DNA of 46,688 nucleotides. Origin: an uncultured bacterium (lineage in GTDB: Bacteria > Verrucomicrobiota > Verrucomicrobiia > Verrucomicrobiales > DEV007). Below, one piece after another: positions 11,546 through 42,146 of the stretch (the first letter of the stretch is position 1; every line of letters starts with the position of its first letter). The DNA lies in the NCBI GenBank assembly GCA_963977015.1, contig CAXBMO010000036.1:1-46688 (forward strand). Reading direction: 5' to 3'. The notes below the pieces were generated by a model. It was not told the DNA's origin, made no database searches, and saw nothing but the letters and a program-made list of their open reading frames with translations. The position numbers and the translations under genes are program-made.

Positions 11546-11938
11546 GATTCAGGAACGGCAATGAGAACGAACCTGAAGGAGGCAGGCCAATCCTGTTCAG
11601 GCGTTTCAGAGGGGGGCGGATTATTTGGCGATGCTGTTTTCGAATAACGTGAAATCCTGAACCATCGCGCTTAGCGATTTCGGGGCTGTCCAAATACAAC
11701 CATTCGGGAGGGTGCGAATCCCCTGTGGGCTAGTCGATTCCCTGTGTACGCTTCATCAATGCTGTTCCGCCAGCCATTTGCCGTAAAGGACGAATGGAGG
11801 TAGTCCTTGGTCGCGCGGCGGCTTCCGCGATTCTTCTCTGGCTTAGCTAACATGAACGCAACACTCGGTAGCGACTACTGGCTAGGTTTTATCACAAGAT
11901 AACTTTCAAATCATAAGAAACGCCTCGCTTCGCTTGGC

Positions 11939-11997
11939 GCACAACGGATGCGCTCATCCGACGCGATCAGCGTTCGGGGTGGAGCGCTTTGTTTGTC
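11939..11997 (-). other. Isolated attC site (59 bp)
   Basis: Minus strand GACAAAC-AAAGC-GCTCCACCCCGA...TCGGATGAGC-GCATCC-GTTGTGC: AAC/GTT core triplets, paired L boxes with extra bases, same length as the attC at 43316-43374. Confidence 0.7.
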
Positions 11998-38876: not shown

Positions 38877-39003
38877 ACAGAACGGCAGCGCTGACCAGCA
38901 CGAACCGGGAGCGCCACATCACAGCAGGTAGAGAGTTGTAGTGGGTGATGCACTTTCTGGTCACACCGTAGGGTCCGTGTCTGTGTCCGGCGCATTGTTA
39001 GTC
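38877..39003 (-). other. attC site of cassette 6 (127 bp)
   Basis: GACTAAC (contains stop TAA) ... GTTCTGT with imperfectly paired arms. Confidence 0.8.
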
Positions 39004-39660
39004 TTCAATCTTGGTCAACGTTTCAATTGCATCTCGCGCGTACTTTACTGGATCAGCCTCGATACCGTCTTCGGTCAAGTGCTGAAATTTTGCAATTACG
39101 CGCTTGAGGTAGGGGATCGCTTCCGGCTCACCGATTTCTTCAAGCGCAAGAACGGCCATTGAAGGATCTATCCGCCGGTTGCAATCTCGGTCTAGATTTC
39201 GCCCAATGCGATGCAGGTATCGCTTGCCGCCAAACTTTCCCAAATATTCTAGAGCTTGAATATAATGATCATCTCCGAAAAGCGCACAACGAATCCAGCC
39301 AATAGTCCAATGCGGTGCATCCAGAATCGGCGCAATCCATTGTTCGACAAATGGCAGAAGATATTCGTTCTCATGTTCCATAGCTCGGTCAATAAAGTTC
39401 ATCTTATCTTCTGCACTGAGCTTATCACATTTATCAACAAGCTTGATAAACAAGTCCTTGGCCATTTGCGAATTGGCATTCTTTGCAATTGCTGAAACAA
39501 GAAAGGCAATATGCTCGACTTCCGCGTGGGAAGAGGCCGACTCTGCAAGTTGTTCTAAACGTTGTAAATACGCTTCATCTGCAAGTTCACGAGCTTCGTC
39601 ATAAGCGGCACGAGCGTCTTCTTCTTTCAACTGAGCGAGTAAATCATCAATGTATTCCAT
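38998..39660 (-). CDS. Cassette 6: HEAT-repeat-like helical protein
   Basis: Start MEYIDD (39660); ALEYLGKFG..AVLALEEIGEPEAIPYL..ARDAIETL HEAT-like motifs. Confidence 0.75.
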   Translation of the reverse strand: MEYIDDLLAQLKEEDARAAYDEARELADEAYLQRLEQLAESASSHAEVEHIAFLVSAIAKNANSQMAKDLFIKLVDKCDKLSAEDKMNFIDRAMEHENEYLLPFVEQWIAPILDAPHWTIGWIRCALFGDDHYIQALEYLGKFGGKRYLHRIGRNLDRDCNRRIDPSMAVLALEEIGEPEAIPYLKRVIAKFQHLTEDGIEADPVKYARDAIETLTKIED

Positions 39661-39667
39661 ATTGACT

Positions 39668-40090
39668 ATCAAGGTAGGGACACCGGTTGCCCGGCGCCCC
39701 CCTCACAGATCCCGGCGTGCGGATTTCCCGCACCGGGCTCCTCGGAGAATCGCGCACGTTCACGCTTGGTTCTGAAGTCCTGTTGGCTCCCCATCGGATG
39801 ATAAGATGGCAGGATTGCGCTCATAAGGCAAGGCGGGGTTGATAGGCGGGGTCGATTTCTTCCACCACCCTCGCGGGCGGCAGTCGCCACACCGTGGTCC
39901 ACCGGGCTAGCAGCTTTTCCCAGGTAAAGCTTTTGCGCTGGCTGCGCCGATTGAGCCATTTGAAGATCAATCCCTTGACCTCCCGCTCGTTGGTGCCCAG
40001 TCGCTGGCTGTTTCCCAGGACGCCGTAGTAGTTCCAGTGACCCATCAGTTTGGCCCGAAGCCGATCCAGGATCCAGTCCAACGGCTTATC
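39668..40090 (-). mobile_element. Group II intron 3' remnant (maturase X domain, domains V and VI)
   Basis: KLMGHWNYYGVLGN..KWLNRRSQRKSFTW X domain (stop 39821); DV GAGCCCGGTGCGGGAAATCCGCACGCCGGGATC (39740-39708); DVI with bulged A ending CCTACCTTGAT at 39668. Confidence 0.92.
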
Positions 40091-40440
40091 TTGCGTTCGT
40101 TTTGGTAGATCGCACGCAACTTGCGGGAGTTCGCCACAATGACTTCGCATCCCAACTTGTCGAGTAGCCGACTGATCCACGGGCTATGACTTCCCACCTC
40201 CATAGCGATCCGTGCTTTGGGAAAGCGCTTCACCAACATCGCCAACCGTTCCCTGGTATTGGGGATCCGTCATTTCCGCGACAATCTCGCCCTCCGCGTT
40301 GAGGGCACCTATGGCATGTTTGCGATCGCCCAGATCAATCCCCAAGGTCGCTTTCCGATCGATGGCAGGTCGTGTCCTTTTCATCAGCAGAGAGTCTATC
40401 AACCCCGTCCAGCGACGAGGCGCTCTGCCTTCTCATCTAA
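40091..40440 (-). pseudogene. IS110/IS1111-family transposase 5' remnant, frameshifted and truncated
   Basis: ATG 40384, LGIDLGDRKH..(+1 G at ~40268)..IPNTRERL..IAMEVGSHSPW..VIVANSRKLRAIYQNERK; DEDD RuvC domain cut just before KxDxxDA. Confidence 0.9.
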
Positions 40441-41513
40441 TCTTGTTCGGTGTTGTCGGCGTCTCCGTTGTCTACGCCGGACTGCAAATGGTCGTAGCTT
40501 AGATTGTGCCCCATGAAAGTAGGCAAATTCCATTCGCGGCAGATCTCCTCGTGCATGTTCGCCAGATTCTTGAGGCTAGACCAGGTAGCAACCAGATGAT
40601 GAGTGAGAAAAGTACGAACGATGAACTCCTCATCTTCTTGCATGCTTTCTGACAGCTTCTTTGAGTCCGGGAACATCTCTTGAGTGAACCCGCCCTCTGC
40701 TGTGGCTGTGTCGATCAAGTTTGCCGTGCGTGAAGCTAATCGGTGACAGTCTGCTATTGGCGTCCACATTGGGGTGGTCTCCCAAAAATCATACTCGAGT
40801 ATTCCCCGTAAAAAGTGGCGTATTGTGAGGAGTTCGGCGGACTCAATTAGCTCTTCGATCGGGAGATAAGAGAGATGATCGTGTAGATACCGGAGTTCGT
40901 GTTCTTGGTACGTAAACTTGGTGAATGCCGCGTAAAGTTTAGGGCGCTTCGCATAGAATTTCAGGGCAGTCAGGGAGTGTTCCTCGAGGGTCAGCTCATT
41001 CTCGATAGGAATCCAAATCGTCTTGTTCCCTTTCGACGAAAACGTGGGATCAGACGGCAAAACGACCTTGTCAATTAGGTCATTGAGGCAAACGAAGAAA
41101 ACTCTTCCAGAATTCAATTCGACTAAGAAGAGTACGACAGGCAATGCCGGACTCATTGCCTGAACTGTTAGAAGCTCACCGACCTCAATGGTCAGCGGGA
41201 TAACGGTGATATCTTTGGATTCATCGGGGTTCTCCGTCAGCGGCTTCTTCTCAACGTTGTAGAGTGGGTGAACGGAAACAGATCTCGTCTGAACTTTGTG
41301 CGTCGACTTTATCTGGCCGAAGAATGTCTCTCCAAGCGTGTCGGCTTTTGTTCGCTCTTCATCGACGTATTGGAAAAGCTCGACGGCAATATCAATTCCA
41401 TAGTCTGGCTTGTAATCGCGAATCACCCACTCTTCAGGAAGCAGGCCTTTAAGCACCTCACGGCTCTTATCCTCCATGATGTGTTGCTGAACGCGCCGTT
41501 TCGGGTGAGCCAT
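40437..41513 (-). CDS. Cassette 5: DUF4365-type PD-(D/E)XK-like nuclease domain protein
   Basis: LPEEWVIRDYKPDYGIDIAVELF..FFGQIKST; its R'' ACCGAAC (40445-40451) matches the cassette start GTTCGGT. Confidence 0.8.
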   Translation of the reverse strand: MAHPKRRVQQHIMEDKSREVLKGLLPEEWVIRDYKPDYGIDIAVELFQYVDEERTKADTLGETFFGQIKSTHKVQTRSVSVHPLYNVEKKPLTENPDESKDITVIPLTIEVGELLTVQAMSPALPVVLFLVELNSGRVFFVCLNDLIDKVVLPSDPTFSSKGNKTIWIPIENELTLEEHSLTALKFYAKRPKLYAAFTKFTYQEHELRYLHDHLSYLPIEELIESAELLTIRHFLRGILEYDFWETTPMWTPIADCHRLASRTANLIDTATAEGGFTQEMFPDSKKLSESMQEDEEFIVRTFLTHHLVATWSSLKNLANMHEEICREWNLPTFMGHNLSYDHLQSGVDNGDADNTEQD

Positions 41514-41522
41514 TGTTTTTTG

Positions 41523-41648
41523 ACCGAACGATTGAGCGATGTCACTGCCTGCCGACAGCGCACTCCGACTTCTGGGTTAAGGTTTGAACGTTCATTCGGC
41601 TTCCGACTCAGCGCGGGCAGGCAGTTGATCATCCGCGTCTTGTTCGCT
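41523..41648 (-). other. attC site of cassette 4 (126 bp)
   Basis: AGCGAAC AAGACGCGGATGATCAACTGCCTGCC...GGCAGGCAGTGACATCGC..GTTCGGT; near copy of 44545-44670. Confidence 0.92.
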
Positions 41649-42146
41649 GTTGGTGGTTCGAGATAGCTGGTCGACCTTCTTGAGCAGTGTGGGAAATCGA
41701 TACGATCCATGCATCGATGCAATCTTATTGGCGGCTTCCGCGTAAGACAACCCGATTGCAGTGACAAATAGAGGACGCTCGCTGTCGCCCCTCAATACTT
41801 CAACGGCGTGCTGTGAATTCCGAAACCGATTCTTCGCAACGCCAACTATAATCGGCTCGCCAGACAAGCTCTCTTCGAGATGTGCTCCTAGGCCACCTTC
41901 GCCGTCTTCCGATAGATGGCAATATCCGTCGATCACGAAAACGGAAACATCCTCCCGGATCTTCGAAATCACGGCCAATAGGGGCTGCAACTCGCGAAGA
42001 TAGAACTGACCTGGCGTGTAATCACCGCAGTCCTCGGTTGACACCGCATACGTCCCCATAGCGCGCTCTGAATCCCAACTCTCAAACACAACCGCGGCGG
42101 CAGTGGCCTCCGTATCGGAATAGTAAACATCAAGTGCGGCGATCAT
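41592..42146 (-). CDS. Cassette 4b: endonuclease V family protein
   Basis: MIAALDVYY, YTPGQFYLREL, VIDGY, GLGAHL, IVGVAK, RPLFVTA, MHGSYRFPTLLKKVD; ATGA overlap with upstream gene. Confidence 0.88.
   Translation of the reverse strand: MIAALDVYYSDTEATAAAVVFESWDSERAMGTYAVSTEDCGDYTPGQFYLRELQPLLAVISKIREDVSVFVIDGYCHLSEDGEGGLGAHLEESLSGEPIIVGVAKNRFRNSQHAVEVLRGDSERPLFVTAIGLSYAEAANKIASMHGSYRFPTLLKKVDQLSRTTNSEQDADDQLPARAESEAE

Follow-up and report, generated by a model that had tools for sequence, protein, structure and literature searches.

The locus analyzed here raises the question of how the beginning of a transposase gene came to be joined directly to the end of a group II intron between two gene cassettes. 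We propose, at a probability of about 85%, that it is a double scar in an integron-type array, left by the guided insertion of an IS, the insertion of an intron and then an illegitimate deletion. The window (the whole 46,688-nt stretch of DNA that was analyzed) is a complete contig, and it carries a cassette array of integron type on its minus strand, from about 46000 to 38200. The contig ends ~690 nt upstream of the array's first cassette. No integrase or attI was found adjoining the array, the only above-cut-off match to TIGR02249 (291 bits) being on another contig, C1. Four attC sites of 58-135 nt were recognized in the window, each of them an imperfect hairpin after an ORF, with inverted R″ and R′ boxes in which CGAAC pairs with GTTCG. 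The sites were set by eye and then folded, ungapped scoring of the arms having given no usable automatic calls. They were recognized from architecture and folding only, and their fold z-scores (-1.06, -2.39, -3.04 and -1.49) indicate that two of the four fold no better than many shuffled sequences. One of the intact sites, GCGAACAAGACGCGG … TCGTTCGGT (41523..41657, minus strand), belongs to the SUKH plus EndoV-like cassette that precedes the scar and forms an imperfect hairpin in which CGAAC pairs with GTTCG.

The next cassette encodes a DUF4365 protein of 358 aa (40437..41513, minus strand; PF14280, 36.2 bits). On the minus strand, its ORF ends with …ACC GAA CAA GAT TAG, and the final codons enter the start of an attC. 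The preliminary description regarded this start as normal, and the CCGAACA found at 40450 to 40444 does agree with the starts of the array's other attC sites (CTAACAAGACG, CGAACAAGACG, CGAACAAGCCG and GCGAACAAGACG). What is left of the site is a stub of its R″ end, CACCGAACA (40444..40452, minus strand); the rest of the attC 3′ of the stub is missing, and IS sequence stands in its place. The left boundary of the IS was set by comparing 19 related copies with a recognizable left end. This confirmed the switch from attC into IS that had been described, although the boundary lies 2 nt further left than was thought. The IS starts with a 7-nt left-end extension, AGATTAG (40443-40437, minus strand), directly followed by a 12-bp subterminal inverted repeat, ATGAGAAGGCAG (40436-40425, minus strand). 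Since the TAG at 40439 to 40437 falls within this extension, the IS supplies the stop codon of the DUF4365 ORF, as had been proposed. The flank of the window IS is GAACA, which it shares with 10 of the 19 related copies, and the dinucleotide AG that follows can be assigned to flank or IS alike.

The IS itself is a 5′ remnant of ~355 nt from the IS1111 family (40089..40443, minus strand). In a BLAST search against the whole genome, window positions 40089–40448 were 95.6% identical over 360 nt to the sole intact IS of the genome (C18:47658-49125); the genome's two other IS remnants are 98.8-99.3% identical to that copy, a difference that, with the frameshift described below, bears on the age of the window remnant. 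The transposase ATG (MKRTRP…) is at 40384. It follows the IS start, as had been noted, but at a distance of 59 nt instead of the ~55 nt claimed. From there, alignment to the intact copy delimits an N-terminal pseudogene of about 98 codons (40090..40384, minus strand), which appears among the ORFs as fragments at 40184..40402 and 40045..40245. One extra base near 40267 shifts its frame; this base, at 40267, is absent from run X5. The pseudogene keeps the GIDLG and AMEVG motifs and stops at …YQNERK, ahead of the next acidic motif. A Pfam search with the two short ORF fragments returned no family for either, and it is by nucleotide identity to the intact C18 copy that they are read as transposase. 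The seekRNA-encoding region is absent because of the deletion, and the right end is missing as well. The window IS is dead: it is frameshifted and has lost the catalytic core past the first two acidic motifs, the guide and the right end.

The intact copy on C18 reveals the class of the element. Its transposase matches PF01548 (80.3 bits) and PF02371 (77 bits), the N- and C-terminal domains of a DEDD transposase of IS110 type. Its ends are ATGAGAAGGCAG and (C)CCTTCTCAT, with extensions of 7 nt on the left (AGATTAG) and 3 nt on the right (GGA), and a subterminal repeat of 10-12 bp is found both in this copy and in its relatives. These domains, along with the comparison of ends, uphold the earlier assignment to the IS110 superfamily, IS1111 type, at the 5′ end of an attC. 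We compared 24 related loci, the hosts of which are Verrucomicrobiota. A left end was found in 19 of them and a right end in 18, and the flanks diverge exactly at these ends. All 18 right flanks begin with AG. Among the 19 left flanks, 10 have AACA as their last bases and are followed downstream by sequence resembling attC. A non-coding region of 182-606 nt lies 3′ of the transposase in 18 loci. In a tblastn search of 72,556 plasmid records (PLSDB), the best among the matches listed were 29-37% identical.

Within the genome itself, there are four insertions: the one in the window, two on C18 and one on C19. All four lie at GAACA/AG at the R″ end of an attC, with the transposase and the cassette ORFs on the same strand. 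This position is common to the intact copy, the two other remnants and the closer relatives in other Verrucomicrobiota. The three remnants each have a left end and none has a right end, and those on C18 and C19 are located at the array terminus. This comparison shows that the window IS inserted in sense at the R″ end of the attC after DUF4365, between GAACA and AG. An array copy with an uninterrupted attC after DUF4365 was not found, so the state before insertion is a reconstruction.

On the other side of the joint is a 3′ remnant, ~421 nt long, of a group II intron (39668..40088, minus strand). It consists of the end of the intron-encoded protein (maturase/X domain, with a stop at 39823-39821) followed by ribozyme domains V-VI. 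The latter match Rfam RF00029 (group II domains V–VI) at 39668–39742 on the minus strand with 44.4 bits, against a threshold of 40, while the ORF at 39821..40180 scores 22.1 bits against the maturase domain PF08388, 0.9 bit below the cut-off of 23. The remnant is 98.2% identical to another remnant on C18, and whole-genome BLAST aligned window positions 39830–40089 with an intron copy on C6 at 96.2% identity over 260 nt. In that copy, a stop separates RVT_1 (82.4 bits) from GIIM (24.1 bits); the copy also matches RF02005 (55.1 bits), and it opens with GTGCG straight after an attC ending in …GACGTT. A 5′ intron fragment elsewhere in the window (11629-11942) also sits behind a hairpin plus CGTT. 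We considered this fragment as the other half of the remnant and rejected it, since it has its own hairpin and ends at intron position 312, not 1724.

The window intron ends at 39668, 7 nt ahead of the ATG of the next cassette. The 3′ exon and cassette start (AGTCAAT, then the ATG at 39660) and the HEAT-repeat ORF that follows (PF03130, 27.1 bits) occupy 38998..39667 on the minus strand. The intron lies in sense orientation on the top strand, with the GTT of R′ preceding it. Comparison with the other copies shows that it inserted in sense where the HEAT cassette begins, right after the GTT of an attC R′ box, and that its type of target is a hairpin followed by CGTT. Its domains I-IV are gone, and this intron is dead.

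The point at which the two remnants meet was placed at ~40090 by the preliminary description, which had the transposase joined there to the intron X domain. Whole-genome BLAST splits the sequence exactly at 40089. Identity to the IS runs through A40089 and identity to the intron runs from A40089/T40088 (junction 40088..40090, minus strand); a single nucleotide, the A at 40089, is common to both. Being without homology, the junction suggests a deletion or another illegitimate join. The fusion left no attC between the DUF4365 and HEAT cassettes. Consequently, the two genes are flanked by one attC pair and are now movable only as a single unit. As for the deletion, it would have been illegitimate, with 1 nt of microhomology. 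It probably removed the IS from about nt 356 to its end (~1.1 kb, including the guide RNA and the right end), the rest of the attC, possibly whole cassettes, and the first ~1.72 kb of the intron.

A joint of this kind could conceivably be an artifact. The IS and the intron are both multi-copy repeats and the genome is a 51-contig draft, so an assembler might have fused two repeats that are adjacent in no cell. We consider such a chimera extremely improbable. With only 1 nt in common, overlap between repeats cannot have made the joint. In addition, the misassembly that the preliminary description had allowed for at 40090 is contradicted by contigs from metagenome runs. The joint is spanned without any difference by Logan contigs of runs X1 (304 nt, 39948–40251) and X2 (100 nt, 40057–40156), each with at least 31 nt on either side; a third contig, of run X3 (151 nt, 39967–40117), crosses it with merely 28 nt on one side. 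A separately assembled TARA scaffold of 6.7 kb (L085) is 100% identical to the window over 41402–39932, across the joint. Parts of the stretch that lacked cover in single runs were excluded as evidence. With the joint crossed in contigs of three metagenome runs and in the TARA scaffold, misassembly is excluded. These runs and the scaffold may come from the source population of the genome, and so they establish that the joint exists in reads without implying that it has spread further. Contigs of organism A (run X5) break off at 40087/40089 and then run on as an intact intron and an intact IS. In a run search, no run recorded as RNA contained the stretch.

Two other origins of the joint were weighed. 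The IS recombinase itself might have made the deletion, guided by its RNA to pseudo-sites, as GAACGCAAGA, on the IS side of the break, is similar to the normal target GAACAAGA, and the left end was kept and the right end lost in all three remnants of the genome. Three of three is not significant, however, and the breaks of the C18 and C19 remnants have no such motif on the retained side. Furthermore, the recombinase needs the same core in both partners, but the intron side, …ATGCA/TAAGCC, has no AG core and only 1 nt in common with the IS. We judge this explanation very unlikely and reject it because the joint has no common core. The chances are slimmer still, and similar to those of a chimeric contig, that the intron retrohomed into the IS and was truncated at its 5′ end by incomplete reverse transcription, with no separate deletion. 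While 5′-truncated copies of the intron are common in the genome (C18, C11 and C28), the 3′ end of the window intron is followed by the start of a cassette and not by a continuation of the IS. Also, the IS sequence before the joint has no hairpin plus CGTT, unlike the two intact insertion sites.

We return to two insertions followed by an illegitimate deletion, and to the question of how much was deleted. In the narrowest version, a single attC carried the IS at one end and the intron at the other, and a ~2.9-kb deletion took only the 3′ part of the IS, the attC body and the 5′ part of the intron. This is the smallest deletion that yields the observed joint, and with the IS at R″ and the intron family at R′, one attC can hold both without overlap. 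Nothing in the sequence, on the other hand, tells how many cassettes were lost. The sister array on C18 has its intact IS and its introns in different attC sites, one cassette apart, and three other deletions ending within copies of this IS or intron in the genome took unrelated flanking DNA. We give the one-attC version a real chance, albeit somewhat below even odds. The IS gives the position of an R″ end, belonging to the DUF4365 attC, and the intron that of an R′ end (after GTT), belonging to some attC before HEAT; that both ends were parts of the same attC cannot be demonstrated, as the deletion may have taken whole cassettes. The proposal that a deletion welded cassettes 5 and 6 is sustained by the homology-free fusion of IS and intron with no attC between them, but not the part of it that placed both elements in the same attC.

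The insertion position was probably chosen by a guide RNA of the seekRNA/bridge type, encoded in the region 3′ of the transposase. The comparison of relatives shows this for the family, and the dead window copy would have followed the same rule. The 3′ non-coding region of the intact C18 copy holds a conserved seekRNA-like structure, predicted to have two hairpins and two loops. Its hairpins comprise 24 pairs with 93.1% of cells paired, compared to 27-48% when the partners were slid, and six of the pairs have changes on both sides. Support is weak for an outer stem that we had proposed for the donor loop (columns 121-125 with 186-190), with 78% pairing and no both-side changes, and RNAalifold places another short helix there. 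A search for an Rfam family in the IS non-coding region found none, the matches at gathering score in two loci (L001 and L003) being to intron models only.

In the C18 guide loop, one strand, GGAACAAGAT, equals the left flank of the attC (GAACA) plus AG. A target-loop strand that consists of left flank plus core (…AACA-AG-AT) would pair with the bottom strand. The second target-loop strand would be complementary to the right flank's top strand, and across the relatives the opposite loop strand does covary with the right flank, being complementary to that of each copy. The fit between guides and flanks was first determined for 12 IS-site pairs and later for 20. For the left-flank strand, the 4 nt ahead of AGAT agreed with the final 4 nt of the flank in 15 of the 20 pairs and failed to match in the other five. 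The right-flank strand showed at least 6 contiguous complementary nt in 13 of the pairs, with fewer in seven. The observed sums were reached, for either strand, in 0 of 20000 permutations of the sites among the 20 pairs, a result that overstates the significance, given the non-independence of related copies. Where the target is a different one (L021, L022, L054, L060, L062 and L076), the loop is changed to correspond.

In the intact C18 copy, the guide for the right flank matches the element's own site over 5 nt only. When the C18 guide modules were compared with 373 AACAAGNCG sites in the genome, the best contiguous fit was 6 nt, and most trials with shuffled guides reached at least 6. The preliminary description had expected an intact copy to encode a guide aimed at this attC family. 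The RNA and its conserved left half agree with this expectation, but the right half does no better than shuffled guides. Given this poor fit, aiming at the attC family is supported for the conserved left half only.

Tandem copies (two or three) of the 5′ half of the target loop were present in 9 of the 20 elements with a recognizable target loop. In each tandem unit, a variable guide of 12 nt stands between two conserved segments, a stem strand and an inner-stem strand. The upstream unit fits the element's own right flank in two of the nine (8 nt in L029 and 6 nt in L059), and L013 has as its only guide the one found upstream in L011, which matches the site of L013. We can speculate, with considerable doubt, that the Verrucomicrobial clade of the window IS carries a small guide array, either a natural multiplexed bridge/seek RNA or material for retargeting. 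If the modules fold alternatively against a single 3′ half, a fixed guide would read the invariant R″ box and interchangeable guides would read the variable attC bodies. Alternatively, the tandem modules may be raw material from which the family is retargeted.

How do these elements compare with known systems? The bridge RNA of IS621/IS110 has two loops, for target and donor, with a strand like the left flank, a strand complementary to the right flank and a shared core dinucleotide. Similarly, the present guide is a two-loop RNA with left-like and right-complementary strands. Two marks of IS1111 separate the present element from IS621/IS110, namely a position of the RNA 3′ of the gene and subterminal inverted repeats that carry extensions of 7 and 3 nt. 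According to passages of PMC11187229, IS1111 elements have subterminal inverted repeats of ~11-13 bp with 7-nt left and 3-nt right extensions, and their seekRNA, encoded 3′ of the transposase, has its match to the top strand located 5′ of its match to the bottom strand. The intact copy and its relatives share both this order, top-strand match first, and the 7/3-nt extensions. The same passages describe an IS1111-attC group (ISPst6, ISPa21, ISKpn4 and ISPa25) that, like the window IS, uses one fixed position near the attC 5′ end. One passage of PMC3001079 has the published IS1111-attC elements antisense to the cassettes, whereas all four insertions in the present genome are in sense to the cassette ORFs. 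The present hosts also differ in being Verrucomicrobiota, and the group was compared by its described traits. Tetu and Holmes reportedly described, in 2008, degenerate IS1111-attC footprints within attC sites of Pseudomonas, often where a cassette array ends. The C18 and C19 remnants are like those footprints in that they lie in attC sites at the array terminus. The IS lineage and the phylum differ, and in the present genome one such footprint lies inside an array, fused to an intron remnant.

With respect to the intron, passages of PMC3001079 and PMC7923331 state that group IIC-attC introns (S.ma.I2) use the attC hairpin as an upstream stem-loop and insert at the GTT box, on the bottom strand at R″ (TTGT/T) and antisense to the cassettes. 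The window intron, in contrast, is in sense and follows the GTT of R′ on the top strand. Its orientation is that of UHB.I2 (group IIB1) and of an unusual IIC intron in Enterobacter cloacae, which part of PMC7923331 describes as inserted in sense, directly downstream of the attC top strand. The hosts and intron lineages are different, and that part of the paper reports no fusion with an IS. Overall, the scar is ordinary decay, from a new lineage of a known kind of element.

In conclusion, the scar shows mobile elements that parasitize attC sites freezing an integron array. A single deletion destroyed a recombination site as well as an IS and an intron, and it welded two cassettes into one unit. 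The scar also points to an IS1111-type lineage of Verrucomicrobiota that is distant from its plasmid relatives in PLSDB among the matches listed. Its members read the conserved R″ box of attC sites and are oriented the other way round from the clinical IS1111-attC elements, and the attC targeting of the lineage is possibly a case of convergence. Enough natural copies reside at different targets for the guide code to be read by covariation, and these copies provide a natural, testable set of guide/target pairs for an RNA-guided recombinase.

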